Shown here: positions 1,723 to 45,234 of the stretch, piece by piece
Numbering within the stretch: the first letter of the stretch is position 1
Layout of the letters: each line of letters starts with the position of its first letter
From: Escherichia phage DTL
Strand: one strand, 5' to 3'
Sequence record: MG050172
DNA length: 45,814 nt
The notes under the pieces: generated by a model
Seen by the model: only the letters and a program-made list of their open reading frames with translations
Told to the model about the DNA's origin: nothing
The model's database searches: none
Translations under genes and position numbers: made by a program

Positions 1723-1793
1723 TAGCACCTTTTGTTAAAACAGTAGCCGCGAAAGCGGCTATTATTGTTTTATAGAAACGACAGGAGATTGAA

Positions 1794-2222
1794 ATGAATT
1801 GGCATGAACATTACGATTACAAAGATGGAAAGCTTTATAGGAAGTACCAAAACCACAATCACCCGGCAGGAAAGGAGTGTGGCTGGATTGATTTAAGGGG
1901 TTACGTTAGGACTAAGCTGTTTTCAAAGATGACTTTTGCCCATCTAGTAATATGGGAAATGCATAACGGAGAGGTTCCCGAGGGCATGGAGATCGACCAC
2001 ATTAATGGAGTTAAGCATGATAACAGGATTGAGAACCTAAGGTGCGTAGATAGGTGGGTAAACTGCAAGAATATGGCGAAGAGAAAAGACAATAAAAGCG
2101 GGCAAACTGGAGTTAGTTACGTTGAGTCAAGAAATGTTTGGGTAGTAAGTATACATGTAAACAAATTCACACATAGTCACACGTGCGATACGAAAGATGA
2201 GGCAATTTCAATTGCAAAATAA
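1794..2222 (+). CDS. HNH homing endonuclease
   Basis: Signature AHLVIWEMHNGEVPEGMEIDHINGVKHDNRIENLR; RBS GGAG upstream. Confidence 0.8.
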   Translation: MNWHEHYDYKDGKLYRKYQNHNHPAGKECGWIDLRGYVRTKLFSKMTFAHLVIWEMHNGEVPEGMEIDHINGVKHDNRIENLRCVDRWVNCKNMAKRKDNKSGQTGVSYVESRNVWVVSIHVNKFTHSHTCDTKDEAISIAK

Positions 2223-4075: not shown

Positions 4076-5659
4076 TCACCCCAGCAGTCGCGGATTAATG
4101 TAAACTTTATCACCAATCAGGCACGTATAGTTCTTCTCATCGAGCATCGGCAGTAAGTGATCTTTAATCTTCGTCATTACTCCAGCCTGAGCCTCGAACG
4201 GCTTAACCTTGCGAGCCGCTTCATACAATGAACGAATGCCAACAACACCCTTACCGTTTTTGCCTTGCTTGATCAGAATGTCAATCAACTTATTCATCTC
4301 GGCATTGTCACCAGCGTGACCTGCGGCATTAGCAGATGAAAGGTAAGTTTTGCTTAGTTCATTAAACATAATTACAGCTTCTTGCATGGTATCCAATTCA
4401 ATTTCCCTGGACTTCTGCGGACTACCACCATTTGGGTTGAACCAGTTACGCACAGTGTGAAGAACCGCCGCAATCCTGATAGCCTGTTTATCGAATTTAC
4501 CCAGGGCGCCGCGCAGCATCGTGTGCGAATATTTTCCGCCGTCAGCAAGGTGCGGCTCCATTTCCTGGCGTGCTTTGTTGAGATATTTCATTGCCGAGTT
4601 GCTAACCGTGAGCTTAACATCTTGTTCGTTCATTATTTCGTGAACCAAGCGGAAATAATCAGCCTTCAGCCCACCATCAATAGGTTCGTAAGTTGAGTCT
4701 CCATTCTCATCAACGAACACGCGCTCGCCAAGAAATGACTTCTCGCGTACAAGCAGAAAACGCTCAGAAACACCGATACCACGCGCACCAGCATTCATGA
4801 TTGCGTTAATCGTCTCATCCTGCGCAATTACAGATATGCAGCCCATAGCAACGAAACTCATATTATTCTCTGAGTTCGCGCGCGCAATAGATACGTTACC
4901 CGCATCCCACGCTTTAAGCACGAGTTCGCTGTTCGTTTTCTTAGAGCCATCACCATAGGTCATGCCTAAAAGTGAGTTAACGCTAGTTGCTTCGTCAGAA
5001 ATTACCGCAAAGTTGCCCTGACGGTTGTTTATTCGCGCAAGACCTTCCGGCGTGGTGTCGGATACGGGGAAAACGATATCGCAAAGTTTCTCGAGCTTTT
5101 CCTCAAGATCCTCCTTCTCCTCAAAAAGAGAGGCCATCTCTGACGGAGATTTTTCCTGCTTAATCTCTTTGGATAATGCAGATAGTTTGGCCATAATCTT
5201 TTTTCGCTCACGTTTTCGCACTTCATTAAGCCGCTCAGTCTCAGCAATCATTGGAGCAATTGAAAGTGAGTTGATTGCTGATTTACCAGTCGATGGCGGC
5301 TGGCTTGTTACAACATAAAGCGAAGTTGGTTGCTGAGTTCCGTGATACTCAACTGTAAATCGTCCTAGCATGGCGGCAGAAATACACCCCAGGAAGTGCA
5401 TGTATGCGGACGACTCCGGAAACTGAACAGAACGAGCGATATTGGATGATAGTTTGCCAACAACATCAATATCATTACCCAATGAGATTACGGGATACTT
5501 GTCATTAGCCGCATCAATCTCGACTGGCGCTTTCCAGAATGATTGAGACTGGCGATATCCATTAGCATTAATAGCGACTCGCAGTGGGGTGAGGTTGTCT
5601 GCTGCAGCAATTGCCATAACCTGTTCAACAGATAGTTTATCTTCGTTGAAATCAAACAT
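4076..5659 (-). CDS. hypothetical protein (527 aa), full-length member of a two-member paralog family
   Basis: Long ORF; N- and C-terminal ~40 and ~80 aa are homologous to the 140-aa product of 8671..9093. Confidence 0.5.
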   Translation of the reverse strand: MFDFNEDKLSVEQVMAIAAADNLTPLRVAINANGYRQSQSFWKAPVEIDAANDKYPVISLGNDIDVVGKLSSNIARSVQFPESSAYMHFLGCISAAMLGRFTVEYHGTQQPTSLYVVTSQPPSTGKSAINSLSIAPMIAETERLNEVRKRERKKIMAKLSALSKEIKQEKSPSEMASLFEEKEDLEEKLEKLCDIVFPVSDTTPEGLARINNRQGNFAVISDEATSVNSLLGMTYGDGSKKTNSELVLKAWDAGNVSIARANSENNMSFVAMGCISVIAQDETINAIMNAGARGIGVSERFLLVREKSFLGERVFVDENGDSTYEPIDGGLKADYFRLVHEIMNEQDVKLTVSNSAMKYLNKARQEMEPHLADGGKYSHTMLRGALGKFDKQAIRIAAVLHTVRNWFNPNGGSPQKSREIELDTMQEAVIMFNELSKTYLSSANAAGHAGDNAEMNKLIDILIKQGKNGKGVVGIRSLYEAARKVKPFEAQAGVMTKIKDHLLPMLDEKNYTCLIGDKVYINPRLLG

Positions 5660-6087: not shown

Positions 6088-6150
6088 TTTGTTTGCCTTC
6101 GTGTGTTTCGTTTCGATGAGATGAATATACAGGAAAAGCCCCGAATGGCT

Positions 6151-6402
6151 TTAGCAATTAGTGCTATTTATTGCATTGAGTCCAAGTGGTGTTATCACTA
6201 CATTATACCAAGTTCCAATCTCTGGCTTATTTACATTATATGCCATCTCTACATAGCCTAGCCGAAATAGTTTTGGTATACACCTGGATGACTTGCCAGA
6301 ATCTCGAATCCTGCCTCGACTAAAGTCATAACTTATTTGATGAATCTCTCCATTATGAATGCAGTGGAGGGTTTTTATTGCGGATTCAGAAATTTTAATC
6401 AT
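6151..6402 (-). CDS. hypothetical protein
   Basis: 83-aa ORF; its stop lies within a minus-strand copy of the ATAGCAC element. Confidence 0.4.
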   Translation of the reverse strand: MIKISESAIKTLHCIHNGEIHQISYDFSRGRIRDSGKSSRCIPKLFRLGYVEMAYNVNKPEIGTWYNVVITPLGLNAINSTNC

Positions 6403-7516: not shown

Positions 7517-7739
7517 GTCTTTCTCCTCGCTGTTGATGGGTTAACTATATCCCCACTAACTCATAATGTCTTTAGCAAAAAGTGCCATTCGTTAGATTTA
7601 TGGATTGTTGCAGATATTGCAATGATTCTCATGATTATTGCGTATATAGCAATATTGCTTCAGATGCAATGATTTTTTTGATTGTTGCGAAAAGTGAAAT
7701 GAAGTGGTGAGTGAGTGAATGAAAGAATGATGGACTACC

Positions 7740-8170
7740 ATACAAGTTGATTTTGATTCTGGCTGAGCCATTTTAACGCTTACGCGTAACGCCAGTAGCG
7801 CGATGTAAGCCAACGCCTATCGTTACGCTAGTTACGCGCAGATACGCCATGACTTACACTATAAGTGCTTAATATATATATATATCTTCTTTCTATTATT
7901 ATTATTATTATTAATATTATTGTATGTAAGTCGTGTAACGGGGGTCCCGGCGATATCTATATGTTTTTTCCTATCAGGATGCATTATTTCCATTTTATGT
8001 GAGATTTAGCCATTATGGGGCCACCCAGCCAATTTACCTCGTTACACGAACGACGCGAAACTACATTGAGCTATAGCTGGGCTAGTGTGCCATTTAGCGT
8101 AACGACCCCCGGAAGTTACCAAAAATTACACTTGACTACATGTGTAAGTCGGGATATGATTGATTCAACT
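7740..8170. promoter_or_regulatory. divergent control region A: iteron-like GTTACGC repeats, (AT)n and (ATT)n tracts
   Basis: ~650 bp between divergent gene blocks; TCGTTACGC/TAGTTACGC direct repeats, palindrome TTACGCGTAA, (AT)7 at ~7873 and (ATT)6 at ~7894; homologous to 34400..34860. Confidence 0.5.
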
Positions 8171-22475: not shown

Positions 22476-22500
22476 ACAAACCCTCTTCGGAGGGTTTTTT
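22476..22500 (+). terminator. rho-independent terminator
   Basis: CCCTC-TTCG-GAGGG followed by TTTTTTATT. Confidence 0.65.
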
Positions 22501-22582
22501 ATTGCATAGCACTTTTTGCTAAAGCGCTCGTTCAACTTTGCTGTATAGTTACTTCATCGAAACGAAATGAAGGAATTAAGAA

Positions 22583-22831
22583 ATGAATAACGTTAAAAAC
22601 ATTATCAAGCTCGCTGCGGTTCTTGTTGCTTTTTATGCAGTAGTTCAGATTGTTAACCCAACTGGCGAGGCTGATGCCAATAGCAAGGCAAACAGATATA
22701 CTGTTGAATTTTCTAAGGCTGAGCTAGCATGTCAGGAACTTGTAGGTGGCAAAGTTGACCAAATCATGAAATACGGCAAAGAGGTTTGTAAGGACTCGGC
22801 TGCTAAGATTGCAAAAGAAAACACTAAGTAA
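22583..22831 (+). CDS. small secreted/membrane protein (moron-like insert in tail cluster)
   Basis: N-terminal hydrophobic segment; own promoter element and CATCGAAACGAAA leader upstream. Confidence 0.45.
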   Translation: MNNVKNIIKLAAVLVAFYAVVQIVNPTGEADANSKANRYTVEFSKAELACQELVGGKVDQIMKYGKEVCKDSAAKIAKENTK

Positions 22832-26924: not shown

Positions 26925-27813
26925 TTGGAGAAAATCATGTTAAGTACAAAGTTTGAAAATCAGTTGCAAAGCCTTTTTCCTGGCGAGATTGTGACATTAA
27001 TCCAGGTTGACGGAACCTCTTTTGGCAGTCTCGTTTATTCGTTCCACAATGAGAACATTTCATACACACCTGAAGAGATCATGCTAGCCCAAATGAATGG
27101 CGAGCCACTACCAGAGAAAACCATCACCTTTCGTGGTGAAGAGTACGGGCCTCGCCCATTCGGTATCTCGGGCATTAATATGACCTCTGACGGAAAAGCC
27201 AACAAGGTTACACTAACAGTATCAAACGTAGACCAGCGCATTAGCGCATTGATTAGAACATACAACGGACTTGTTAAAGCTAAGGTTACCATATGGATTA
27301 CCACGAGAGATAACATCAATGAAGACGGAAGCATTGCTGATGGTGACTATCGCAGATTTGTTTACTTCATTGAGCGACCGAAGCAGGTTGATTACAAAAC
27401 TGCGTCATTTGAGCTTAGTAGCCCGATGGATATGGATGGCATTTACATCCCTGCCAGACTTGTTTGACTATCGCAGATTTGTTTACTTCATTGAGCGACC
27501 GAAGCAGGTTGATTACAAAACTGCGTCATTTGAGCTTAGTAGCCCGATGGATATGGATGGCATTTACATCCCTGCCAGACTTGTTCAATCGGTTTGCTAT
27601 TGGGCGTCCAGGGGCTGGTATCGTAGCGGTAATGGTTGCGGCTATGCTGGTAATAGATACTTCAACAAGGATGATGAGCCTGTGTCAGACCCCTCATTAG
27701 ACTTCTGCGCAGGAACTGTTAACAGTTGCAAAATTAGGTTTGGAGAGAATAATCAGCTGGACTTTGGTGGTTGCGCGGCAGCAAGTCTTCAGGCTAAAGC
27801 GAATCAATCATAG
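26925..27813 (+). pseudogene. minor tail protein (lambda L-like) frameshifted by a 121-bp tandem duplication
   Basis: Track ORFs 26925..27467 and 27271..27813 both encode DYRRFVYFIERPKQVDYKTASFELSSPMDMDGIYIPARLV in different frames. Confidence 0.6.
27344..27585 (+). repeat. perfect tandem direct duplication, 2 x 121 bp
   Basis: 27344..27464 and 27465..27585 identical base-for-base on hand comparison. Confidence 0.85.
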
Positions 27814-27866: not shown

Positions 27867-28364
27867 TTGGAGACAAAAATGAACTGGAATGAAATTTTCG
27901 AATACAGAGATGGCAAGATCTATTGGAAAGTTAGCCCTGGCAGGAGGGCTAAGGTTGGTTCGGAAGCTGGATCAAATCAAATAAAAGGGTATAGATTTGT
28001 GAAATTTCACGGAGTTTTATATATGACACACATGGTTATTTGGGAGATGCATAACTGTGAAATACCGCATGGAATGGAGGTTGACCATTTAAATCACATT
28101 AGGGACGATAACAGGATAGAGAATTTAAGAGTTGTTACAAAGTCAATTAATCAGAGGAATGCATCTAAAAGAATTGATAATAAAAGCGGTTTTACAGGCG
28201 TTTCTTGGTATCCCAAATATTCAAAGTGGAATGCTTACGCGACAGTAAATTCCAAGAGGTTTAATCTTGGTTACTTTGAATCAAAGCAAGATGCCTGTGT
28301 GGCTGTTAAAAAATTTAGGTCCATAAATTATTTTCATAAAAACCATGGAGTTGATTTATGTTAA
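27867..28364 (+). CDS. HNH homing endonuclease
   Basis: Motif HMVIWEMHNCEIPHGMEVDHLNHIRDDNRIENLR; inserted between L-like and K-like tail genes. Confidence 0.8.
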   Translation: METKMNWNEIFEYRDGKIYWKVSPGRRAKVGSEAGSNQIKGYRFVKFHGVLYMTHMVIWEMHNCEIPHGMEVDHLNHIRDDNRIENLRVVTKSINQRNASKRIDNKSGFTGVSWYPKYSKWNAYATVNSKRFNLGYFESKQDACVAVKKFRSINYFHKNHGVDLC

Positions 28365-29710: not shown

Positions 29711-32700
29711 ATGGCACAAATGATCAAAACAAACACGAGGCTTTGTGATATGTCTGAAGATATTAAGATTTATGGCGCTAAAGGTGGGAGCCAGAAGCAG
29801 CATCAACCAGTGGAGCAGGAAGATAACCTCATTTCACTAAACAAGGTTAAGGTATTGCTTGCTGTAGCTGACGGAGAGGTGGATTCAAACTTCTCAATGA
29901 AGGATTTATACCTTGCTGACGTTCCGGTACAAAACCAGGACGGTAGCTACAACTACGAAGGTGTTCGCGCCGAGTTTCGCGCTGGTACGCAGTATCAGGA
30001 CTATATCGCCGGGCTTGATGGCGCTAACTCAGAGATTCAGGCCTCAAGAGAAATAACTAACGATACCCCGTACATCATTGCGGTTAACAATACTCAGCTT
30101 TCAGCAATTCGAGTAAAGCTATACTGGCCTCGACTAGTTAAGCAAGAAAGTAACGGAGACCTGAACGGAACGACTTGCGAGTACGCAATTGACCTTTCTG
30201 TTAATGGTGGTGCTTACCAGGAATATACTCGCGGAGTTGCAAACGGGAAGACAACAACTGGTTACGACCGCAGCATTCGCGTGAACCTTCCGGCTGAATT
30301 TGATAGCGCACTGGTTCGAATCCGTAAGATTACGCCGGATTCGACGAGTAGCACGCTGGTTAATGGAATGCAGATTACAACCTATCAGGAAGTAATCGAT
30401 GCTAAATTCCGCTACCCGCTTACGGCTCTGGTTTACGTTGAGTTTGGTTCCGACTTGTTCCCTAACGGAATCCCGACAATCTCCATCAAGAAGAGATGGA
30501 AGTTGATTCAGGTCCCGACAAACTACAGACCTGAGACAAGGACTTACAGCGGGACATGGAATGGCCTGTTCAAGATGGCATGGTCAAACAACCCTGCATG
30601 GGTTCTCTATGACTTGGTGACAAACCGCCGATATGGTCTTGATCAGAGAGAGATTGGAGTAGAGATTGATAAATGGGGTCTTTACGAAGCTGCGCAATTC
30701 TGCGACCAGATGGTGCCGGATGGTAAGGGTGGTTTAGAGCCGCGTTATCTTTGCGATATGGTTGTACAGAATAAAGCTGAGGCATACACGCTAATTCGTG
30801 ATATCTGTTCAATATTCCGTGGCCTGACTTTCTATGATGGCGAAAAGATTGGTATCGTGGTTGATAATCCTCGCAACCCATCTTACATCTTCACCAATGA
30901 TAACGTTGTAAACGGATTGTTCAGCCGCACATTTGCCAGTGACAAGAGCCTTTACACTACTGCTAACGTTCAGTTTGATGATGTAGAGAACAACTATCAA
31001 CAGGATGTTGAGCCAGTTTTCGAGCTCGAGGCGACAAGGCGTTTTGGATTTAACCCTGTGGACCTAACTGCAATTGGATGTACTCGCAGAAGTGAAGCAA
31101 ACAGGCGCGGCAGATGGCTCCTGAAAACCAACCTGAGAAGCGAAACCATCAGCTTCACTACCGGGTTGGAAGGCATGATTCCGATGATTGGTGAGGTCAT
31201 TGCGGTCAATGATGCTGCATGGTCGAGCAACTATCAGTTAAACCTTTCCGGTCGTATTGAATCAGTTCAGGGATTGCAGGTTTTCACCCCGTTTAAAGTT
31301 GACGCAGCGCCTGGTGACAGAATTCTTCTGAACAAGCCTGACGGAAGCCCGGAGGCAAGAACTATCGCAAGCGTTTCGGAAGATGGAAGAACTATCAACC
31401 TTAACACTGCTTTCAGTTTTGTGGCTCAACCTGATACTGTTTTTGCAATCGATAAAGATAACCTTGCTCTTCAGCAGTATGTTGTGACCGGGATTCAAAA
31501 AGCAGATTCCGACGGCTCGGACTCATTCCAGTATACGATTACAGCAGTAGAGTATGACCCAAACAAGTATGACGAGATTGACTACGGCGTTAACATTGTT
31601 GATCGCCCGACTTCAATTGTTGAGCCTGACAGATTGTCGCCGCCTGAGAACTTAACAGTATCAAGCTACAGTAAGGTTGTTCAGGGCTTGTCAGTTGAGA
31701 CGATGGTTATCGGATGGGATAAGGCGCCATACGCTAAAACCTACAATGTTCAGTGGAGAAAAGAGAATGGCAACTGGATTAACGTACCAAGAACAGCAAG
31801 TACAGAGGTTGATATCGAAGGTATTTACGCAGGAATCTATGACGTTAGGGTTCGCAGCGTATCAGATACTGAAAACGTGTCTGCCTGGTCTGGCATTGTA
31901 ACCGTATCGCTAACTGGCAAGATTGGTCGCCCATCTGCACCTACGGTTATCACGGCGTCAACTGATGAAGTATTTGGTATCCGTGTTAAATGGGGGTTCC
32001 CTGAAGGCTCTGGCGATACTGCTTACACTGAGCTTCAGCAGGTTCCAGATAATGGTGATGGTACTTACAATCCTGATAATGCAAGTTTGCTTACGTTACT
32101 TCCGTATCCGGCCTATGAATACTGGCACACGCCAATTCAGCCAGGAAAGGTTATCTGGTATCGCGCAAGATTGATTGACAGAATAGGCAATACCTCTGAT
32201 TGGTCTAATTTCGCTAGAGGCATGAGCACTGATGATGCCAACATTATCAACGATTATATCAAGGTTGATATAGAGCAGTCTGAAGGCTTTAAATACCTAC
32301 AGCAGAATGCAATTGAGAAAAACCAGGACATTCAGAATCAGGCTGAGGCAATTATCGAGAACGCATTGGCAAATGATGGCGATGTTCGCAGAATGACAAA
32401 GGAGAATGGCAAGCGCAAGGCTGAATATGTTCAGGCAGTTAATCTTATAGCCGATGAGACTCAGGCACGCGTAGATGCTCTCACGCAGCTTAAGGCGCAG
32501 ATAGATGATGAGATCGTTGGTCAGATTACAACAATTGAAACAGCACTAGCTACAGAGACAGAGGCTAGAGCAACCGCCGACACGGCTTTGAGCGCAAGGG
32601 TTGGTAATAACGAGGCTGCTCTAAACCAGAAGCTTGATGCTTTCTCTAATGCCACGTCAACTGGTGTACAGTACGGTATTAGTCTTGGCCTGAAATACAA

Positions 32701-33136
32701 TGGGCAGACTTATTCATCCGGCATGAGCATGGAGCTTGTTGGCACTGGTGGTAATGTTCGTAGTCAGTTCATCTTTGACGCAAACAGATTCGCTATCAGT
32801 AACGGTATTGGTTCTGGTTCCGGTCAGTGGCAACTCCCCTTCGTTGTCGAGAACGGGAACGTAATCATCCAGAGCGCAGTAATCGGCGATGGCTCAATCA
32901 GCAACGCGAAGATTGGTAACTTTATTCAGTCCAATAACTACGTGGCAGGAACTACAGGTTGGAGGATTGATAAATCAGGAAGTGCAGAGTTAAGCAACGC
33001 AACTGTAAGGGGGAATCTTTACGCCAACAATGGTAACTTTGCTTTTAATGGAACCAACAACACGGTTCAGATTAACGGTAATGGAATCACGGTAAATCTA
33101 CCAAACGGCGGTCGCGTTGTTGTAGGTACGTTCTAA
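29711..33136 (+). CDS. tail tip host-specificity protein (lambda J-like)
   Basis: 1141 aa; blocks such as RIRKITPDSTSS, IQVPTNYRPETRTYSGTWNG and DKWGLYEAAQFCDQMVPDGKGG parallel lambda J as recalled from memory. Confidence 0.8.
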   Translation: MAQMIKTNTRLCDMSEDIKIYGAKGGSQKQHQPVEQEDNLISLNKVKVLLAVADGEVDSNFSMKDLYLADVPVQNQDGSYNYEGVRAEFRAGTQYQDYIAGLDGANSEIQASREITNDTPYIIAVNNTQLSAIRVKLYWPRLVKQESNGDLNGTTCEYAIDLSVNGGAYQEYTRGVANGKTTTGYDRSIRVNLPAEFDSALVRIRKITPDSTSSTLVNGMQITTYQEVIDAKFRYPLTALVYVEFGSDLFPNGIPTISIKKRWKLIQVPTNYRPETRTYSGTWNGLFKMAWSNNPAWVLYDLVTNRRYGLDQREIGVEIDKWGLYEAAQFCDQMVPDGKGGLEPRYLCDMVVQNKAEAYTLIRDICSIFRGLTFYDGEKIGIVVDNPRNPSYIFTNDNVVNGLFSRTFASDKSLYTTANVQFDDVENNYQQDVEPVFELEATRRFGFNPVDLTAIGCTRRSEANRRGRWLLKTNLRSETISFTTGLEGMIPMIGEVIAVNDAAWSSNYQLNLSGRIESVQGLQVFTPFKVDAAPGDRILLNKPDGSPEARTIASVSEDGRTINLNTAFSFVAQPDTVFAIDKDNLALQQYVVTGIQKADSDGSDSFQYTITAVEYDPNKYDEIDYGVNIVDRPTSIVEPDRLSPPENLTVSSYSKVVQGLSVETMVIGWDKAPYAKTYNVQWRKENGNWINVPRTASTEVDIEGIYAGIYDVRVRSVSDTENVSAWSGIVTVSLTGKIGRPSAPTVITASTDEVFGIRVKWGFPEGSGDTAYTELQQVPDNGDGTYNPDNASLLTLLPYPAYEYWHTPIQPGKVIWYRARLIDRIGNTSDWSNFARGMSTDDANIINDYIKVDIEQSEGFKYLQQNAIEKNQDIQNQAEAIIENALANDGDVRRMTKENGKRKAEYVQAVNLIADETQARVDALTQLKAQIDDEIVGQITTIETALATETEARATADTALSARVGNNEAALNQKLDAFSNATSTGVQYGISLGLKYNGQTYSSGMSMELVGTGGNVRSQFIFDANRFAISNGIGSGSGQWQLPFVVENGNVIIQSAVIGDGSISNAKIGNFIQSNNYVAGTTGWRIDKSGSAELSNATVRGNLYANNGNFAFNGTNNTVQINGNGITVNLPNGGRVVVGTF

Positions 33137-33167: not shown

Positions 33168-34133
33168 TCAGTACATGTTTGGTATGTACGGCAACTGCAT
33201 TGATATGTTTGTATTGAATGGAAATTTAGCGCCAGTCTTTGTTGAGTAGTTTCCGATCACACTGCAAAACTCAGACCTGACAGAACCATTAGACATTACA
33301 ACCCCTTTATATCTAAGGTTGTTATAGCCACCAGTTACGCGAGTATAAGCTCCGGTCCTAAGTATGGGGAAGTATCCGTCACCTATTGACTGAAATGAGT
33401 TTGATATCTGAATGAATCCACCAAGCACAAAAGGCCTCTTGACAGTAGAGAATACAACCTGGCCGGCCGGGTTTGCTATTGTTATCCCCGGCCCGCCAAC
33501 CGGCGCAGTGTTGTTGAATATAACCAGGTCAACGACAACTGATGCCGACACGTTATCTATGCCGCCGTATGTGTTATTCCTGCAAAGAATCCTAGACCCA
33601 TCAAACTCGAGCGTAACGTTTGGATTACTCCACCTACCAAACGGGATTCCAGTTATTGGTAGTGTATAACTCCCATTCACCGTAACTCTACCAACAAACT
33701 GAGCTGTCATTAGCCTTGAGTTTGTCGTTATAGAGATAAAGTCAGTTGAGTTGGCAACAAGTATGCCTTGACCCGTGGACGCACCTGTTATTTCAAAGCA
33801 GTTTCCTGAGAAGTTTATCAGCCTTCCTTTAGCGCCGTTAAAGTTGCTAATATTTATTCTTCCTTGCGTATTTGATACCCGCTGGAATCCATTCATATAG
33901 TAAACCTCAGGTATAACATTGAAGTCTATAACATCAACAGCCTTTATTGGCAATGCGAATGCGGTTGATCCATCTGTTTGGCTAAGTGAAAATGTAAGAC
34001 CCCCAGACTGAGATGCAAAACTTTTAGTTGGAATAGATCCGGTCACATTAGGTGCTCTTAAGCCGGACGTTATCTGCATTGCTGGACTTCCATCATTCAG
34101 GTCTATTAGAATACCCTGTGGCATTATTTCCAC
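33168..34133 (-). CDS. hypothetical protein, possible receptor-binding protein
   Basis: 321 aa, Gly/Asn/Thr-rich; co-transcribed downstream of the Cor-like gene. Confidence 0.4.
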
Positions 34134-34366
34134 TCCTTAGAACCATGGTCTTTAATGGAGCCACCGTAACCGCCACCAGTGGCCTTAATTCCATCGTAGC
34201 GCACATCAACTTCGCCAGCTGGAACAACCACACCATTTTTCCATTTAGCCACGCATACGCCGCTTGCTTGCGTTGCACACCAACCATCAGGACGTGGACC
34301 TGATGAACAACCAACTGTCATTATTACTGCTGCTGAGATGATTACTGATTTGATGAAGTTAGTCAC
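34124..34366 (-). CDS. putative Cor-like superinfection-exclusion lipoprotein
   Basis: 80 aa, lipobox TVGCSS, GTG start, placed just beyond the J-like gene. Confidence 0.45.
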
Positions 34367-34399
34367 TTTGTACTCCTTAGTTAGTATGTTTCGTTTCGA

Positions 34400-34860
34400 T
34401 GGGATAACTATACAACCGTCAGTGAGGAATGTCTTTAGCTATTCGTGCTATTGTATACACGTAACCGATGTAACTGCGTGTATACCAGTGCCATCCGCGA
34501 GAAATCGTATACGCCTAGTTACGCCTAGTTACGCATTGGTTACACTAAAATATCTATATATATCAACCTTTTACTATTATTATTATTATTATATATATTA
34601 CTGTGTATATCATGTAACTACCTCTATAGGGTGTTGCGGTTATAAATTTCTAATATGTACATTTATACAGTATCTATCAACCAGCACACCAACGCACCCT
34701 CCGCGAGAAGCGGTATACACGATATACACGCTGGTTACGCTGAGCTATGGCTGGCTTGATATGCCAAAAAACGTAACTAGTGCCAACGCCTACACGTAAT
34801 TACAAAGATTCACGCGTAAGTTTGAATCAACGATTGGAGAAACCAATTGGACCCAAGCCA
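34400..34860. promoter_or_regulatory. divergent control region B: iteron-like TAGTTACGC repeats, (TA)n and (ATT)n tracts
   Basis: CCTAGTTACG x2 at ~34513..34537, (ATT)n at ~34574..34592, GAGCTATGGCTGGCT block; homologous to 7740..8170. Confidence 0.5.
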
Positions 34861-34913
34861 TGAACTCTCATATAGTTAACCCATCGAAAGCGAACAACCA
34901 GAGAGATAAAGAA

Positions 34914-35108
34914 ATGACCTACTACATTATCAAAGAGAAAAACAATGCGCTGTTCGGCGACTGCTACTTTGGCGGCCACTCTGGATACACCACAGATAAG
35001 AACGAGGCCGACAGATTCGAGACTAAAGAAGAAGCCCGAGATGTTCTGACCGGGTACTTCACTAAAGAAGATTTGAAATCTGTTAAGGTAGTTAAGGTTA
35101 AAATTTAA
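34914..35108 (+). CDS. hypothetical protein
   Basis: ATG 34914 preferred over track start 34860; preceded by CATCGAAAGCGAAC leader variant. Confidence 0.35.
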   Translation: MTYYIIKEKNNALFGDCYFGGHSGYTTDKNEADRFETKEEARDVLTGYFTKEDLKSVKVVKVKI

Positions 35109-35109
35109 A

Positions 35110-35583
35110 ATGGAATACAAACTCTACTTCAATTACGACAATGGAAAGTTGATATGGAAAGTCAAAAAGAAATCAGGAAATCCGGGCTCAGAGGCTGGTA
35201 GTGTGATGAGGGATGGTTACATCATGGTTGGTTTAAATAGAAAACTAATTCTTGCTCACAGAATAGTTTGGGAAATGCTTAAAGGCCCGATACCTGAAGG
35301 TATGGAGATTGATCATATTAATCATTGTAGGTCAGACAATAGGATAGAAAACTTAAGGATGGTGAGTAAGCCGATAAATCAAAGAAATAGATCGAGATCA
35401 AAAAATAACACAAGCGTATTCACGGGAGTTTGTTGGAGTAAGTCAGCTTCAAAGTTGGTCTCATCAATGAAAGTTAACGGGAAAAAAATTCATCTTGGAT
35501 CGTTCGATGAAATACAAGATGCAATAGCTGCAAGAAAGTCAGCAAACCAAAAGTATAAATTTCACAAAAATCATGGAGAATAA
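35110..35583 (+). CDS. HNH homing endonuclease
   Basis: Motif HRIVWEMLKGPIPEGMEIDHINHCRSDNRIENLR. Confidence 0.8.
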   Translation: MEYKLYFNYDNGKLIWKVKKKSGNPGSEAGSVMRDGYIMVGLNRKLILAHRIVWEMLKGPIPEGMEIDHINHCRSDNRIENLRMVSKPINQRNRSRSKNNTSVFTGVCWSKSASKLVSSMKVNGKKIHLGSFDEIQDAIAARKSANQKYKFHKNHGE

Positions 35584-36550
35584 AATGTTTAAGGTTTTTA
35601 CGCGAGAAGAGTTAAGCAACGAAGAGTATCACTCAGAGTCTGACCACATCTCCGGTAGCTCACTTGTCGAGATTATCCAGGGCTCGCCAGCTAAGTGGAA
35701 ATTCAAGCGGCGTAATAGCGACAGCAAGGCGCTAAAGTTTGGAACCCTAAGCCACACGATGATTCTGGAGCAGGATGTATTTGATAAAGAATACCTTCGC
35801 GAAACCGATCTTGATGCCATCGAAGGCTTAATTACAAGCCAGACCGGATTATCAGCAGCACTTAAAAAAGTTGGCGTAGCTGGCACGTCTGGGAAGGGGT
35901 ATAGCGAGCTCGTAGAGATGATGTATCGTTCAGGTGAGTATTGGGATGTTAAATGGCTAATTGAGCAGCAGGATAGTGCTCAGGCTATTGCGGAGGGCAA
36001 GGAGCTAGTTAGCGCAGCAGATTACGACAAGGTTGTCGCGATGCGCGAGGTTCTTTGTAATATTCCTGCGTATGATGCAATTGTGAACAGTGAGACTGCG
36101 CAGAAGGAGTTATCAATCTTCGGTGAGATTCTAGGTGTTGGCGTTAAGATTCGAATTGACCACGTAGATGTTATTGATGGGGTTGTATGCATTACCGACC
36201 TGAAGACGACAGCCAGCGCATCACCTCAGGAGTTTGGTAGACTTGCATTCAAGCATGGTTATCTTGCAAAAATGGCGCTACAGCACGATGTTTTTGTTAG
36301 GGCTTTTAATGAAAAAAGAAAAACAAAAGTAAGGCTACTTGCGATCGAGAAAGAGGAGCCTTACCTACCAATGCTTTACAGCATTACAGAAGAGCAACTG
36401 AAGGTTGGCCGCAGGATGTATTTAGAGGCGCTTGCCACTTACAAAAAGTGCAAAGAGAATGATGAGTGGCCAGGTTATGCAATGGGCGCAACAGAGATTG
36501 ATTTAGATGTTCCTGAGTGGGATATGAGGAAGTATAGAGATGAAATATAG
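35573..36550 (+). CDS. PD-(D/E)XK family exonuclease (RecE/YqaJ-like recombination nuclease)
   Basis: Motif ITDLKT (D-x-K core); sits upstream of the ERF and SSB genes. Confidence 0.55.
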   Translation: MENKMFKVFTREELSNEEYHSESDHISGSSLVEIIQGSPAKWKFKRRNSDSKALKFGTLSHTMILEQDVFDKEYLRETDLDAIEGLITSQTGLSAALKKVGVAGTSGKGYSELVEMMYRSGEYWDVKWLIEQQDSAQAIAEGKELVSAADYDKVVAMREVLCNIPAYDAIVNSETAQKELSIFGEILGVGVKIRIDHVDVIDGVVCITDLKTTASASPQEFGRLAFKHGYLAKMALQHDVFVRAFNEKRKTKVRLLAIEKEEPYLPMLYSITEEQLKVGRRMYLEALATYKKCKENDEWPGYAMGATEIDLDVPEWDMRKYRDEI

Positions 36551-36619
36551 CACTAATTGCTAAAGACAAAATTAACGAGTGGGGTATGATTGCCACATCA
36601 ACAACGAACGAGGTTAAAG

Positions 36620-37311: not shown

Positions 37312-37734
37312 ATGCACGTAATTACTGGTCAGATTCGCCGCGCTCCATTCACTAAAGAAGGTCAAAACGCAAATGGTAACTGGAAAATGTTTGCGGTTGA
37401 CTTGAGTGAGAGATACAAGGATAAAGATGGGCAAACTCAGTACACTAACTATCGCGCTGTGCTTTTCGCTAAAGAGTCAATGCTAGATTGGTACAATGAA
37501 GCATTTCAAGAGGGTAAGGTTGTTAGCGTTAGCGCTGAAAGTCTGGCTGTTGATGTTCGTGATAAAGATGGTAAGACTTACGTAACGATTAACATGAATA
37601 ACCCTCGACTTGAGTTTAGTCAGCGTGGTGAAGGCGGTCAGCAACAACAGAAACCGCAGCAACAACAACAGCAGCAACAACAGCAGCGACAGCCGCAACA
37701 GCAAAACACATTCGACGGAGATATCCCATTCTGA
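37312..37734 (+). CDS. single-stranded DNA-binding protein (SSB)
   Basis: OB-fold-like N-terminus, Gln-rich linker, C-terminal DGDIPF tail. Confidence 0.8.
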   Translation: MHVITGQIRRAPFTKEGQNANGNWKMFAVDLSERYKDKDGQTQYTNYRAVLFAKESMLDWYNEAFQEGKVVSVSAESLAVDVRDKDGKTYVTINMNNPRLEFSQRGEGGQQQQKPQQQQQQQQQQRQPQQQNTFDGDIPF

Positions 37735-38579: not shown

Positions 38580-39956
38580 TTAGTTGAATGAGTAAATTGG
38601 CTCGTTAAACATAAACTTATTAAACCCATGACTTAGTGCTAGCCTTGCTGAAACTGGCGTATCAAGAGTCCATAGTGAGTGTTGCAATCCTGCCACCTCC
38701 AGCTTTTTCAAAAGCTCCTTACTTGCCCTCCACGCTTGAAACTGAATGTAGCACTTACCTAGAGATTTTCCATCCTGAATTACGGAGTCTGTAACTTCGC
38801 CATATATAAGGTATCCAACAGCTATATCTTTGTCTAGTTCTCTGACCTTTTGTAACTTGCTTATGTCAGCAGCGCAAAGAACGCACAAGTTTTCCATTCC
38901 AAGCTCTTTAACCATATCAACTACAATTGATGCGTCATCAGTACTTCTTAAATGAGCAAGTTCTGCGTAAATTTTACACCCTCTTGACTTGCAGAAGAGT
39001 AGTACATCATAGAGCAGTGGAACTGGTTCCCCTGCGTACCTATAGGTGCTGAATTTAGATCCAGCATCAAGACCAAGAACATATGAAGATTGAAGCTGTG
39101 TAGTAATGCCAGTTCCGTTGGTTGTTCTTGATACATTTTCATCATGCATTAGTACCGGAATACCATCCAAGGTAATTGAAATATCACATTCCAGAGCATT
39201 TGCCCCAAGTGAAAGCGAACCCTCCATTGCTGCCATTGTGTTTTCAGGGAAAACCAAAGAAAAACCACGATGAGCAATTAGTTCTTGCTTCTGATTTTCG
39301 TACCTGTCAGATTGCATTCTTGAGTAAACATCAATATTCTGCCTTGCTAGTGGCTTGTCCGTTAAATCAGAGAATGCCAAATCCTTTCTTAATAAGTTTT
39401 GCGTATCAAGTGATGCGGCATAATCTGCAGCTTCCAGAGCCGATTCCGCTGCCGCATCTTTATATGTTGATGCACTACTGGCGCTTGCAGCCGCTGCATC
39501 CTTGTCAGTTGAAACCTGAGATGCATCAGATGATACCTGAGCAGCAATAGTAACAATTTCTACAAATTGTGTGTTAACTTGGCTTACATCATTTGAAAAT
39601 TTATCCTGATCAAAATCCTTAAAAATATCAACCGCTGTTGAAACCTCTGTTTCGCGTGACTGATAATATCGAAGAGTCTCCGCAACATCCTGAGCCAACC
39701 CCTGAACACTAATTCCGTCATGCGCAAGGATCGCATAACCCGTTCCAACAGGAACAGTTTCGCCATTAGGGTTGTATACAGCCATTGATGTGTCACTGGT
39801 GATTTCAGAGATGGTGTAAATCTGTACTGGCTCCGTTTTAAAAACTAAGGTAGAACCAACTCTAATCAATGTTAGTGGCATAGTCCATTGAGTGCCAACG
39901 CCAGTAACTTGGCCGTTAGCGGCTAAACTGGCAGTACCAGTATCATAAATTGCCAT
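38580..39956 (-). CDS. tail fiber protein with C-terminal glycerophosphodiester phosphodiesterase (GDPD) domain
   Basis: GDPD signature AHRGFSLVFPENTMAAMEGSLSLGANALECDISITLDGIPVLMHDENV; ATG 39956 after RBS GGAG. Confidence 0.6.
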   Translation of the reverse strand: MAIYDTGTASLAANGQVTGVGTQWTMPLTLIRVGSTLVFKTEPVQIYTISEITSDTSMAVYNPNGETVPVGTGYAILAHDGISVQGLAQDVAETLRYYQSRETEVSTAVDIFKDFDQDKFSNDVSQVNTQFVEIVTIAAQVSSDASQVSTDKDAAAASASSASTYKDAAAESALEAADYAASLDTQNLLRKDLAFSDLTDKPLARQNIDVYSRMQSDRYENQKQELIAHRGFSLVFPENTMAAMEGSLSLGANALECDISITLDGIPVLMHDENVSRTTNGTGITTQLQSSYVLGLDAGSKFSTYRYAGEPVPLLYDVLLFCKSRGCKIYAELAHLRSTDDASIVVDMVKELGMENLCVLCAADISKLQKVRELDKDIAVGYLIYGEVTDSVIQDGKSLGKCYIQFQAWRASKELLKKLEVAGLQHSLWTLDTPVSARLALSHGFNKFMFNEPIYSFN

Positions 39957-40026
39957 TGTGTAAAGTCTCCATTTGTAAAATAGCACTAATTGCTAAGTTG
40001 GATTGTAGCATCTTTCAGGTATAAAA

Positions 40027-40043: not shown

Positions 40044-40967
40044 TTAGCTATTCAATAAATCACTCGCCTTATATATCTTCTTCCTGATGCCGCTCTTGAA
40101 TGAGTATTCATCATTTGGTATTACCACCTCAACGTTCCTGTCATCCGCAACGCAAAGTAATTCCATATCAAGATTGCACGCCACTCTCAACTTGTAGTTT
40201 TTGAGCGCATAAGCAACCATCTCCATATTGTAGCTGGAGTGGCAAACAAGCGCGCAGCGGTTCCCAGTAGCAAGATGAACGCGAACACCATCAATCCAAT
40301 TATCGACAAGATAAGCGTACTCATCACTTTTAAAGGTACCAATAACAGCAACTGACTGACGGGTATAATCTTTTGCAGCATAACTAACAACTCCCTCTTC
40401 ATTTATAAACATTACATTGCACATCTCATCTGACAACCCATCACTATAAGCCATAAAGCACGGTATTGCGTGTATTAGTTCTCCTGATTTTGTCCTGCCA
40501 ACATCAAAACCAAACTCGCTATAGATTCCCTCGTATATACTGAGCGGAGTTGATTCTACTCTTTCCGTCCTTTCCATTATCTCTAAGCACCTTTTGTGGT
40601 CAATCTGAGCGCCCATTTTGTATAGTTTGGTTCTTGATGCTTGCTTGTTTGCTTTAACTATAACCTCAATTGGTGTTAAGTTCAGCCAGTCACCAAGCAA
40701 ATTTACTGAATCGGCGAAGGACGATCCAGTGCACTTCATGACCCATCCTATACCGGAGTCACTTCCGCATTTCGAACAAACTGCCGCGCCATTTCCTTTT
40801 TCACTGCCTATTTCGTCGGTAAATCTGAATCTGTCAGTGCCAAAGCAGTATGGGCATGGTCCGTGCTTCTTACTTAGGTGTCTATCATTCCAACCAAGTT
40901 CCTTTGCATAAAATGATTTCCACAATCCGGCCATCTTAGGTATAACTTCATTCTTATCGTAATTCAT
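40044..40967 (-). CDS. DNA primase (zinc-ribbon plus TOPRIM-like)
   Basis: Zn-binding CPYCFG...CSKCG at N-terminus; acidic TOPRIM-like C-terminal half. Confidence 0.65.
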   Translation of the reverse strand: MNYDKNEVIPKMAGLWKSFYAKELGWNDRHLSKKHGPCPYCFGTDRFRFTDEIGSEKGNGAAVCSKCGSDSGIGWVMKCTGSSFADSVNLLGDWLNLTPIEVIVKANKQASRTKLYKMGAQIDHKRCLEIMERTERVESTPLSIYEGIYSEFGFDVGRTKSGELIHAIPCFMAYSDGLSDEMCNVMFINEEGVVSYAAKDYTRQSVAVIGTFKSDEYAYLVDNWIDGVRVHLATGNRCALVCHSSYNMEMVAYALKNYKLRVACNLDMELLCVADDRNVEVVIPNDEYSFKSGIRKKIYKASDLLNS

Positions 40968-41443
40968 TTGCTTAACCCGTGATTTTCGTGAAAGTTGTAT
41001 TTTCTCTCTGCTTCAATTCTTACTTTATACGCCTGCTCTGGAGTATCGAAGTTCCCAAGGTGTAGCTGCTTGCCGTCAACCTTGATGTGAGCCTTAAATT
41101 TTCCGTGATTTAGCTTTGCCACTCCACAATAACCAGTTGTTGATAAAACGCTAATCTTGCAATTTCTTGAGTTACCTTGATTTGTTGTTACTCTTAGGTT
41201 TTCTATTCTGTTATCTAATTTGTTATGGTTTATATGATCAATGTAGTCGCCATTTTGAAGTTCTCCATTAAACATCTCCCACACAACTCTATGTACATAA
41301 GTCCTAAAGCCATTAACAGACACTTTGTAATAGCCAGATGTAGATAGTGAGTTGCACTCATCGCCAACCTTAACACGTCTTGCAGTGCTAATCTTCCAAT
41401 GCAATTTGCCATCTACATAGTAAAAATAATCATGCCAGTTCAT
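40964..41443 (-). CDS. HNH homing endonuclease
   Basis: Motif HRVVWEMFNGELQNGDYIDHINHNKLDNRIENLR. Confidence 0.8.
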   Translation of the reverse strand: MNWHDYFYYVDGKLHWKISTARRVKVGDECNSLSTSGYYKVSVNGFRTYVHRVVWEMFNGELQNGDYIDHINHNKLDNRIENLRVTTNQGNSRNCKISVLSTTGYCGVAKLNHGKFKAHIKVDGKQLHLGNFDTPEQAYKVRIEAERKYNFHENHGLSK

Positions 41444-41495: not shown

Positions 41496-41969
41496 TTACT
41501 CTTTAGCTTTTCGTGCGGCTTCGTTAGCTGCCTTAATCTTTCGCCATGATCGACACTCTGGCTTGGTGGCCAATTCAGCCTCGGTAACCACGCGAAGCAT
41601 GTGACGCTTCTTGCATCTAAGTGTCAGCGGCTTGCCGTTACCGTCGAATTGCAGGTCTGGGCGGCAGAATGTGGCTCGAAAGCCTTCTCCATTTCGCTTA
41701 TAGTAGTTGTGCGACAGCTGGGCACCGCGTGCAGAAATCATTCCACGCTTAAACCACTCCTCTACAGCCTGTGGAGTTACCTTTAACTGCTTTGCGATAT
41801 TCGCCTTTGTGCCGAAGAAATCAAGAACTATCTCGAGTCTCGCTCGTAGTCCGGATCTTACTTCATCTTTTAAAACGTAGTAACCTGAAGGTCGCTTCCG
41901 TTTCTTCTTGTCTTCAGTGCGGACAGTTCCGTTATTCCCGTTAATGGTTCGCTTGTCAACTGCATTCAT
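41496..41969 (-). CDS. putative HTH DNA-binding protein / transcriptional regulator
   Basis: Basic N-terminus and HTH-like ANIAKQLKVTPQAVEEWFKRG. Confidence 0.4.
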   Translation of the reverse strand: MNAVDKRTINGNNGTVRTEDKKKRKRPSGYYVLKDEVRSGLRARLEIVLDFFGTKANIAKQLKVTPQAVEEWFKRGMISARGAQLSHNYYKRNGEGFRATFCRPDLQFDGNGKPLTLRCKKRHMLRVVTEAELATKPECRSWRKIKAANEAARKAKE

Positions 41970-44066: not shown

Positions 44067-44540
44067 ATGAATTGGAATGACATTTTCGAGTATAGTGATG
44101 GGCAGCTATTCTGGAATGAGAAGGGAAAAAGCCGCAAGATGGGAGTGGCGGTTGGTGCCATTCGTGACAATGGTTATATCCAGGTAGGGTACAATCGCAA
44201 GCTGTACCTTGCTCATCGCATCGTGTGGGAAAAGCATAATGGGCCGATACCTGAGGGCATGATGGTAGATCACATAAACCATATTAGAGATGATAATAGG
44301 ATAGAAAACCTTAGATTGGTAAATTGCAAGGACAATACAAGAAACACCAGCATAAGGTCTGACAACAATACTGGTCACCACGGTGTTTGCTGGTGTAATC
44401 GCAGGCTTAAGTGGTACGCAAGGATAAATATTGACGGTAAAAATAAGTTTTTAGGTTACTTCATAACAAAAGCTATGGCCATAGAGGCAAGAAAGCAAGC
44501 CGAGAAGTTATATGGATTCCACGAAAACCATGGAGTTTAG
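44067..44540 (+). CDS. HNH homing endonuclease
   Basis: Motif HRIVWEKHNGPIPEGMMVDHINHIRDDNRIENLR. Confidence 0.8.
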   Translation: MNWNDIFEYSDGQLFWNEKGKSRKMGVAVGAIRDNGYIQVGYNRKLYLAHRIVWEKHNGPIPEGMMVDHINHIRDDNRIENLRLVNCKDNTRNTSIRSDNNTGHHGVCWCNRRLKWYARINIDGKNKFLGYFITKAMAIEARKQAEKLYGFHENHGV

Positions 44541-44961
44541 AGTGAAAATTACAGACAAGGTTGATTATATTGAGTTTTACCCAGGTCCAGTTAAGTCTTG
44601 CCCTAAAGAGGATGACGAACAAATCTTTTGCTCTGATTGGGTTAAGTATAACTATCCAGAGATGGTATTTTTCCACTGCGTGAATGAGGGTAAGAAAACC
44701 ATTGGACAAGCAAGAAAGGACCAGGCAAAAGGTTTGCTTAAGGGTGTCTCGGACTGCTTATTCCTGATACCTGAATCACTTAGAGGAAAGCACCCTTTCG
44801 GGGCAATAGAGCTAAAGAGAGCAGGAAAAACTCAGGCCAGTCCAGTCAGTGACGAGCAGAGGTCCTTCCTGAAAAGCGTAAGAGAATCAGGCGGTTTCGC
44901 GGCCGTAGCTTACGGACGTGAAGGATTTCTAGCGGCATTTAGAGAGATGATTTCAAAATAG
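44530..44961 (+). CDS. VRR-NUC domain nuclease
   Basis: Pattern DCLFLIPE...IELKRAGKTQASPVSDEQ; start ambiguous (44512 or 44530). Confidence 0.5.
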   Translation: MEFRVKITDKVDYIEFYPGPVKSCPKEDDEQIFCSDWVKYNYPEMVFFHCVNEGKKTIGQARKDQAKGLLKGVSDCLFLIPESLRGKHPFGAIELKRAGKTQASPVSDEQRSFLKSVRESGGFAAVAYGREGFLAAFREMISK

Positions 44962-45039
44962 CACGAATTGCTAAAGACGTTTCGGTGAGTTGGTGTATTA
45001 TCTATTCATCGAAACGAAACGCACAAAGAGAGAAATAAA

Positions 45040-45234
45040 ATGGCTACTATCTATACTGGCAAAATGTACGAATCACGCAAGACTGGTTATGAGTATGAAT
45101 TAGTAATCACCGCTGATGGTTATGTTCTTGACGATGGTGAAGGTTATTCTTTCGAAGTTACCCCGACTTACAAAGATGATTTAGAGACTGTTAAAAACGC
45201 ATATGGCGAAAAATTTGATGAGGTATCAGAATGA
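45040..45234 (+). CDS. hypothetical protein
   Basis: 64-aa ORF with promoter element and CATCGAAACGAAAC leader upstream. Confidence 0.4.
   Translation: MATIYTGKMYESRKTGYEYELVITADGYVLDDGEGYSFEVTPTYKDDLETVKNAYGEKFDEVSE

Follow-up and report, generated by a model that had tools for sequence, protein, structure and literature searches.

What does the repeat-rich stretch between the lipoprotein operon and the recombination genes of Escherichia phage DTL do, and what does it mean that the genome holds a second stretch like it? The DNA analyzed here (the window; 45,814 nt, sequence record MG050172) is the complete genome of an Rtp-like coliphage of the Drexlerviridae, which is also listed in IMG/VR as entry IMGVR_UViG_2974667180_000001. 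T1 is a founding model phage, and few coliphages are isolated as often as the Drexlerviridae, which turn up as contaminants in laboratories and as candidates for therapy. The origin of T1-like phages has been reported as not found (PMC11447400; PMC7718038), and one other genome paper inferred an origin from GC skew alone. Within the window, GC skew tracked the coding strand and transcription and was uninformative on replication. The literature covered, which did not extend to the original T1 (2004) and Rtp (2006) papers, contained nothing relevant on a mapped origin or a transcription map for the T1 family, and on that coverage the origin-like pair described below is apparently undescribed for the Drexlerviridae. 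The original prediction regarded the locus (region B) as a copy of a module elsewhere in the genome (region A), and proposed that the two were either two origins or two regulatory hubs. Both proposals survived the present analysis, and the sequence evidence leaned towards origins. We conclude that region B is a real, duplicated, and strongly constrained non-coding element. The reading that we favor, with a probability of about 0.55, is that region B may be one of two homologous replication origins, each built of iterons plus an unwinding element, with region A as the other.

Location and boundaries of region B

The gene order of the window is that of Rtp and T1, and across the recombination block the genomes of CY1, IME542, CEB_EC3a, and Rtp were 80-87% identical to the window. 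The structural genes run rightward as far as a J-like tail-tip gene (29711..33136). A DUF6453 protein and a Cor-like phage lipoprotein are then encoded on the minus strand (33168..34366), to the left of region B, and a small ORF and the HNH, RecE-like, Erf, and SSB genes lie on the plus strand to its right. Region B itself (34367..34913) is non-coding. Its core occupies 34453..34847, or ~400 nt when measured between the two -35 elements. A promoter scan placed outward-facing promoters on both flanks of this core, and the placement of the region between divergent transcription units was thus confirmed. All of the sequence elements that had been named in the original prediction were found, at most 2 nt from where they had been placed. 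The module as first described was smaller than the actual one: the repeats stood as listed, and the simple repeats proved to be merely the center of a ~400-nt composite element with promoter and leader flanks that reach 34367 and 34913.

The left flank (34367..34452, minus strand) contains the promoter and leader of the lipoprotein operon. The promoter scan identified AAGACA-17-TATAGT, with the -35 element AAGACA at 34430..34435 and the -10 element TATAGT at 34407..34412, both on the minus strand; the leader CATCGAAACGAAAC (34388..34401) and the ribosome-binding site (34373..34378) are on the same strand. At the left boundary of region B lies a 21-nt Drexlerviridae direct repeat in the form AATAGCAC-N3-AGCTAAAGACATT (34428..34452, minus strand), and repeat families D12/D17 and I18 of this cassette match more than 12 other copies in the genome. 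The 21-nt repeat aaATAGCACnnnTTGnTAAAA is known in TLS, T1, Rtp, and Rogue1, and its function is unknown (PMC11447400). In the window it is promoter-linked, occurs at no fewer than 15 sites, and lies outside the duplicated core; it is not what regions A and B specifically have in common.

The right flank (34831..34913, plus strand) contains the promoter and leader of the recombination block. It begins with a palindrome, CGATTGG-N5-CCAATTG (34831..34849), and the scan identified the promoter as TGGACC-17-TATAGT (-35 TGGACC, 34848..34853; -10 TATAGT, 34871..34876). The leader CCCATCGAAAGCGAAC (34880..34895) resembles the leader of the left flank, and repeats I20/I23 match other promoter-leader cassettes of the genome. 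Given the position of this promoter and leader, the start codon of the downstream gene is most likely the ATG at 34914, from which a 64-aa product with a full-length match to PHROG 5247 is encoded.

Anatomy of the region B core

The core is composed of a left arm, an iteron array, an AT-rich center, an inverted iteron, a variable spacer, and a right arm. In the left arm (34453..34512), an inverted repeat, GTATACACG / CGTGTATAC (34453..34461 and 34477..34485; repeat I12), encloses two GTAAC sites (34461 and 34470) and is followed by the box CCATCCGCGAGAAATCGTATAC (34491..34512; repeat D3), which recurs 206 bp rightward at 34697..34718 with 82% identity. The iteron array (34510..34545, plus strand) consists of three copies of TACGC/GTTACGC and then GTTACAC. 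TACGC starts at 34510, 34520, and 34530, a spacing of exactly 10 bp that can also be written as two copies of CTAGTTACGC, and TRF reported a period of 10 with 2.5 copies and 100% match at 34510..34534. The series CCTAGTTACG CCTAGTTACG CATTGGTTACAC was located at 34514..34545, and its last element, GTTACAC (34539..34545), abuts the AT-rich tract. In all 13 of the aligned A and B modules, the ACGC/TTAC columns of the iterons were invariant.

The AT-rich center (34546..34611), a candidate DNA unwinding element, is 66 nt long with 9 G/C positions (86% A+T). It contains two (TA)4 tracts (34555..34562 and 34590..34597) and an (ATT)5 tract (34576..34590; TRF, 34571..34592). An exact match to the IHF core consensus, TATCAACCTTTTA, is present at 34561..34573. 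This match was conserved in the Braunvirinae B modules and absent from the Rogunavirinae B modules and from region A of the window, and 3-8 such matches per genome are found by chance; we therefore treat a functional IHF site here as a lead. Directly to the right lies the inverted iteron GTGTATATCATGTAAC (34603..34629, minus strand), in which GTAAC (34614..34618), part of an inverted ATGTAAC, is oriented opposite to the left array and is followed by the palindrome TCTATAG. The columns of the inverted iteron were invariant in the 13-genome alignment. Repeat I1 pairs 34603..34616 with 34716..34729 (14 nt, 93%), and the intervening spacer (34630..34696) was the least conserved stretch of both the 13-genome and the combined A and B alignments.

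The right arm (34697..34820) is a second repeat array, with repeats D1/D2/D3 (206-bp spacing) and I14/I15/I17. It includes the second CCCTCCGCGAGAAGCGGTATAC box (34697..34718) and CGATATACAC, and then CTGGTTACGC (34731..34740), CTGAGCTATGGCTGGCT (34740..34756), GAGCTATGGCTGG (34742..34754; a near-palindrome of AGCTATAGCT), the inverted iteron TGCCAAAAAACGTAACTAG (34762..34780), and CACGCGTAAG (34811..34820). The right arm is in part an internal duplication, in that the CCGCGAGAA...GTATAC box and CTGGTTACGC are repeated at the 206-bp offset; beyond these duplicated boxes it adds GAGCTATGGCTGG and the inverted CGTAACTAG. When the short sites were compared across the tract, GTTAC started at 34518, 34528, and 34539 on the left, and GTAAC sites of the opposite orientation were present on the far side at 34614 and 34773, together with one GTTAC of the same orientation at 34734. 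GTTAC[GA]C occurs 21 times in the 45.8-kb genome (both strands), and 10 of these 21 fall within the 1.2 kb of A plus B. Moreover, the A/T-only trinucleotide arrays of the genome are confined to regions A and B. Such clustering exceeds what chance would give. No match to the DnaA box TTWTNCACA was found in region A or B; GATC was also absent, and counts of GATC indicated that this absence was not significant.

Region A contains a second copy of the module

When a profile of 13 B modules was searched against the window with nhmmer, region A was the only other hit in the genome (7779..8149, E 4.9e-27, profile positions 2-369), and the same outcome was obtained in Rtp, JulesPiccard, ESCO41, and AHP24. 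Direct comparison of A with B in one genome was patchy. The middle 43 nt were 86% identical (E 7e-6), the left flank scored z = 8 against shuffles, and the right flank was not significant on its own; the matching blocks were colinear. Given these colinear blocks and the hit of the B profile on A, the two regions are, by sequence comparison, homologous over ~370 nt. The proposal that B is a homologous copy of the A module was therefore upheld, and the likeness between the two is not confined to simple repeats, a concern that had accompanied the proposal.

The elements of A follow the same order as those of B at nearly equal distances. In region A, TACGC occurs at 7824, 7833, and 7843, CTTACAC at 7853, (TA)6 at 7873..7884, and (ATT)6 at 7895..7912. 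GTAAC (7935..7939) comes directly after the AT tract, as it does in B, and the matching blocks of the right arm (8041..8103) include GAGCTATAGCTGG (8068..8080) and GCGTAAC (8097..8103). GTTAC sites at 7822 and 7831 thus face GTAAC sites at 7935 and 8099, the latter pair corresponding to 34614 and 34773 in B. GAGCTATRGCTGG has only two occurrences, one in each region at an equal relative position. A sigma-70 promoter, TTGACT-17-TATGAT (8132..8160), stands at the end of the region A module. We also observed that the A copy of Rtp looks partly converted to the B type, being 81% identical to window B over 140 nt.

Region A also contains repeats of its own, namely two copies each of TGCAATGATT and GATTGTTGC at 7598..7700, none of which is found in B. 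The shared core therefore stands, and the earlier description of B as mirroring A was too simple in that these A-specific repeats are missing from B. For T1, Rtp, and ESCO41 alike, the first position of the database record falls within the homologous TGCAATGATT/GATTGTTGC cluster, and the cluster is accordingly probably the pac site. Because B is without this pac-type cluster, the element common to A and B is not the packaging site.

Conservation and duplex stability

Single-protein searches of IMG/VR combined with a DNA-pattern scan yielded 4-12 loci, and GenBank phage records were used instead, from which 13 B modules of the Braunvirinae and Rogunavirinae were taken as the comparison set. The left 170 nt of B, comprising the left arm, the iterons, the A/T tract, and the inverted iteron, were nearly invariant in these 13 phages of two subfamilies, and the length of the tract in B was identical in 12 of 13 genomes. 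The framing of the tracts as microsatellites was thus not supported, in that they are not variable in length, and the suggested check on their length was answered by comparison, in that the tract length in the assembly is no artefact. A simple-sequence contingency locus (phase variation) was likewise rejected, given the fixed length of the B tract and its location outside both promoters. The A copies were more variable, ranging from (ATT)4 to about (ATT)7. The right arm was kept in the Braunvirinae and in ESCO41 and not in the Rogunavirinae. Altogether, the module was carried by more than 130 phage records, while a recE homologue was present in roughly 1,260 Drexlerviridae records, and no match to the core was found in plasmids or in 5,426 complete E. 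coli genomes (as satellites or decoys).

Module B of ESCO41 (Nouzillyvirus) was 84% identical to that of the window at the DNA level, compared with 69% for the left flank and an unalignable right flank; most ESCO41 proteins are 40-60% identical to those of the window, RecE is 48% identical in amino acids, and recE is unalignable as DNA. Extra genes (morons) carried by relatives, encoding a Dcm methyltransferase, an anti-repressor, Rha, or a regulatory protein, were located just outside the core and never inside it. In T1, Stevie (TLS-like), a Klebsiella Webervirus, and a Pantoea phage, the sequence has diverged and the design has been kept: upstream of recE, each of these four phages has a gap of 450-600 nt in which short repeats surround an A/T-only center.

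Nearest-neighbor duplex stability was calculated over whole genomes in 60- and 100-bp windows. Regions A and B were the two least stable segments genome-wide in the phage under study, Rtp, T1, JulesPiccard, AHP24, and ESCO41, with z values of 4.2-5.9 compared with 2.9-3.8 for the next best segment in these six genomes; the B tract studied here gave z values of 5.1 and 4.5 for the 60- and 100-bp windows, respectively. In Stevie, K50_evo3, and AAS23, the gap upstream of recE was a local stability minimum. Against taking this as a sign of an origin, an A+T-rich promoter region is expected to melt easily whatever its function. The 6-mers GTTACA, CGTAAC, and GCGTAA were enriched 10-40-fold in A and B in six genomes, including T1.

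Region B as a putative replication origin

Taken together, the phased iterons, the tract of fixed length and minimal stability, and the oppositely oriented sites on its far side favor the reading of region B as one of a pair of origins. Counting against it are the lack of DnaA boxes, the patchy occurrence of the IHF match, the right arm that the Rogunavirinae do not conserve, and the varying tract length of the A copies; host-factor sites of the DnaA and IHF kind are common in enterobacterial origins but not obligatory. A possible course of events can be outlined from this architecture. As read from the sequence, an initiator would encounter an array of three TACGC/GTTACGC units plus GTTACAC in 10-bp phase, then the 66-nt A/T tract, the opposed GTAAC sites, and a second array ~200 bp away. 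The GTTAC(G/A) sites to the left and right of the tract may be bound by a phage protein; this could be the DUF3987 protein, which would use its C-terminal winged helix for binding and act as a self-loading initiator helicase, or alternatively the Cro-like HTH protein. The outward promoters (34435..34407 and 34848..34876) would build negative supercoiling between them, and this supercoiling, together with bending at the IHF-like site, might open the (TA)n/(ATT)n tract. The phage primase and host Pol III would then begin synthesis, and RecE/Erf/SSB, encoded just rightward, would take early replication over into concatemer formation for headful packaging. The fixed length of the B tract, also read from the sequence, would amount to a constraint on the spacing and phase of the flanking sites.

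With respect to candidate binding proteins, the DUF3987 "helicase" is encoded at 4076..5659 on the minus strand, ~2 kb from A and ~17 kb from B; the Cro-like HTH protein (157 aa) at 41496..41969; and a phage Zn-ribbon primase at 40044..40967. A RadD-like SF2 helicase is encoded as well. When the DUF3987 protein was modeled from 24 homologues (pLDDT 89.8), it was predicted to have an MCM-like AAA+ core and a C-terminal winged helix, an arrangement found in self-loading initiator helicases; the C-terminal domain spans about residues 450-527. Sequence searches of the PDB with the DUF3987 and HTH proteins gave no useful hit. In ESCO41, the DUF3987 protein is 93%, the HTH protein 91%, and a VRR-NUC-like protein 95% identical to the window counterpart, against a background of 40-60%. 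This co-conservation is unspecific, with several early proteins conserved alongside the module rather than a single iteron binder. We consider the DUF3987 MCM-like helicase to be the best candidate for binding the iterons and the Cro-like HTH protein to be the alternative candidate. The fully specified scheme, in which a self-loading DUF3987 helicase would read GTTAC(G/A) iterons at two origins, one coupled to pac and the other to recE-erf-ssb, and would load to either side of the fixed-length tract, itself opened by divergent transcription, is offered tentatively, and we would not expect it to hold in all of its parts. If it were true, two origins would organize how theta replication is initiated, how it gives way to recombination-dependent synthesis of concatemers, and how the DNA is packaged.

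A bounded, family-wide pair of origin-like modules makes the old question of where T1-type replication starts directly testable. It would also provide an engineering handle (phagemids, replication-dependent reporters, and attenuated phages), would correct the recurring misannotation of "hypothetical proteins" over the module, and would suggest that the DUF3987 proteins, which are widespread, are MCM-like initiator helicases.

Other readings of the element

The best surviving alternative is a transcription-control hub. Here, the GTTAC(G/A) repeats and CCGCGAGAA boxes would be operators for a regulator, such as a Cro-like HTH protein; the A/T tract would be a spacer, bendable and sensitive to supercoiling, by which the divergent promoters are coupled or insulated; and two copies would be present because two divergent early/middle units need one timing switch. 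We regard this as possible, if unlikely. Both copies stand exactly between divergent promoters, a position that suits regulation equally well, and the elaborate repeated promoter cassette indicates that promoter-linked control is a theme of this genome. The conservation of the HTH regulator in ESCO41 along with the module also fits. Moreover, the promoter scan counted 7 promoter-like hexamers within the A/T tract, compared with 3.2 +/- 1.7 expected, and other annotators have likewise predicted promoters there. However, the -35-like hexamers of the tract were conserved neither between A and B nor across subfamilies, and the promoters themselves are separated from the arrays by 20-100 nt or more and fall outside the core. 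An operator region of 400 nt would be unusually large, and a dimeric HTH protein would be expected on palindromes like the 21-nt repeat (TAGCA-N5-TGCTA) rather than on direct repeats in 10-bp phase. Regulation also gives no reason why A and B should rank lowest in duplex stability in every genome, that of the diverged T1 included. The origin and operator/supercoiling-hub readings are not mutually exclusive.

An accessory role in packaging or recombination, as a second pac-like entry or as a break or strand-invasion site that seeds RecE/Erf recombination-dependent replication, appears improbable. Copy A adjoins the probable pac cluster in which the T1, Rtp, and ESCO41 records start, copy B lies directly upstream of recE-erf-ssb, and (TA)n tracts are able to extrude cruciforms. 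Against this, B lacks the A-specific pac-type repeats, and T1 had one pac site in classical work. The module showed no resemblance to a known terminase or recombinase site, and such a role would not account for phased iterons to the left and right of the tract. Region B as the pac site of the phage was rejected, given that the record starts fall in the region A cluster and that B is without those repeats.

It is very improbable that the module is a functionless A+T-rich spacer that hitchhikes with neighboring genes or has been spread by recent phage recombination. Drexlerviridae genomes are mosaic, and the partly B-like A copy of Rtp would fit such a history, but the ESCO41 module is more similar to that of the window than either of its flanks is. 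Across two subfamilies, the left half hardly varies and its repeats keep a fixed length, the architecture and the stability minimum were kept in the diverged T1, Stevie, and K50, and inserted genes avoid the core.

Least credible of all is an expressed product, either a small non-coding RNA or a 153-aa poly-Tyr protein: in most relatives, the plus-strand frame across the tract has no stop for 60-130 codons, and hypothetical proteins are annotated over the region in some GenBank records, but the poly-Tyr ORF (34338..34799, plus strand) runs antisense to the lipoprotein gene's promoter, ribosome-binding site, and start codon, and its stop positions differ among 13 relatives, leaving 53 aa in one genome. 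This ORF was therefore judged spurious, in agreement with the original prediction, with no part in the function of the element, and no ORF was conserved across the region in the 13 relatives. An annotation of the rtp46 type that starts inside the module was also rejected, as the frame of this N-terminal extension has a stop in the window; the 64-aa product from 34914 matches PHROG 5247 over its full length. An Rfam scan of the whole window returned tRNA only, no terminator was predicted in region B, and RNAalifold analysis of 13 A and B modules (529 columns, one strand) gave -0.83 kcal/mol with essentially no covariation. A structured non-coding RNA was rejected on the lack of an Rfam family match, a consensus fold, and covariation.

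Comparison with known systems

The kind of origin proposed here has precedents among other phages and among mobile elements, and no new principle is involved. In phage P4, ori and crr are two separated cis regions with the same short iteron, both bound by the primase-helicase. P4 alpha is a single superfamily 3 primase-helicase-DNA-binding protein, and crr itself is no origin. T1-family primases have been annotated as P4-alpha-like; the P4 iteron sequences differ from those of the window. The lambda ori and the origins of iteron plasmids have phased direct repeats beside an AT-rich region, and nearby transcription stimulates them. The lambda ori, however, is a single copy inside gene O, and the window encodes no O/P-type proteins. 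In the TLS genome, lambda-type repeats were looked for and none were reported (PMC11447400).

SPP1 has two similarly organized origins that combine direct repeats with an AT-rich DUE (PMC6316719). Like the phage studied here, it is a virulent, pac-type headful siphovirus of ~44 kb, with one of its two origins in a long intergenic region; both of its origins are bound by one phage protein, and its change to concatemer synthesis is driven by a phage-encoded exonuclease, annealing recombinase, and SSB (PMC6316719). The two phages differ in that SPP1 uses the initiator gp38 with a DnaB-type helicase and a loader, whereas the helicase of the window is predicted to be MCM-like and no gp38 homologue was identified in the window phage. 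Also, SPP1 oriL is intragenic, whereas A and B are both intergenic and lie between divergent promoters, and the SPP1 origins and the window modules share no sequence similarity.

In SaPI origins, a central AT-rich region is flanked left and right by oppositely oriented penta- or hexanucleotide iterons, to which a self-loading Rep helicase binds with its winged helix (PMC9371898). SCCmec Cch is a relative of this self-loading Rep system. The SaPI layout of at least two opposed iterons on each side is also found in A and in B, where in B GTTAC at 34518, 34528, and 34539 is set against GTAAC at 34614 and 34773. The SaPI origin lies directly downstream of the rep/helicase gene, which is not so in the window, where the DUF3987 gene is set apart from both modules. 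In layout, region B closely parallels the SaPI origins, and the two-copy arrangement of A and B parallels that of SPP1 oriL and oriR.

Gene content at the module borders in related phages

In the records of relatives, the core of the ~400-nt module common to regions A and B was found to be directly flanked on its outside by extra genes that differed from phage to phage. Such a gene was located beside the core in JeanPiccard (locus L036, 260..949), CEB_EC3a (locus L004, 709..1356), ESCO41 (locus L033, 782..1543), and AHP24 (locus L005, 1826..2629); the kinds of gene inserted at the borders were a Dcm methyltransferase, an anti-repressor, a Rha, and a regulatory protein. JeanPiccard also carried a duplication of the promoter cassette. 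As judged from these sequence records, the borders of the module are an insertion hotspot, with the core left intact. The conserved product of the gene to the right of the module was only ~64-67 aa in length, and its start was found at the site corresponding to window ATG 34914. Hypothetical proteins whose start lies within the non-coding module are annotated in several GenBank entries (e.g., rtp46, 28260..28658 in L002).

Mobile genes, tail genes, and promoter cassettes

Five paralogous HNH/AP2-type homing endonuclease genes (1794..2222, 27867..28364, 35110..35583, 40964..41443, and 44067..44540), sharing 60-72% DNA identity over 151 nt, were dispersed among essential genes in the window, one of them directly downstream of region B. 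At the 3′ end of the SSB gene, ~70 nt (37639..37708) were made up of an imperfect CAA/CAG (poly-Gln) repeat. A tandem duplication of 121 bp (2.0 copies, 100%; 27344..27585) fell within the lambda-L-like minor tail gene, resulting in two overlapping 180-aa ORFs (26925..27467 and 27271..27813) in place of the single gene of ~250 aa found in relatives; the duplication is either an assembly artefact or real and frameshifting. The lateral tail fibre protein (38580..39986, minus strand) contained a GDPD (glycerophosphodiester phosphodiesterase) domain (E 2.8e-27), and this match suggests an enzymatic receptor-binding fibre that degrades a surface polymer.

A conserved promoter-leader cassette was observed at 15 or more window sites, comprising a 21-nt repeat (AATAGCAC-N3-TTGCTAAA, with the internal palindrome TAGCA-N5-TGCTA), a -10 element (TATAGT/TATAAT), and the leader CATCGAAACGAAA. 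Examples were found at 1714..1741, 9184..9226, 10721..10773, 22498..22587, 36530..36563, and 44956..45040, and, on the minus strand, at 6097..6169, 7527..7589, and 34376..34452. The 21-mer alone was described previously, with its function given as unknown (PMC11447400).

Repeats adjoining region A

Two copies each of TGCAATGATT and GATTGTTGC were clustered at 7598..7700, adjoining region A only; neither repeat was found in region B. Because the first base of each GenBank entry for T1, Rtp, and ESCO41 falls inside the homologous cluster, 7598..7700 is probably the pac site.
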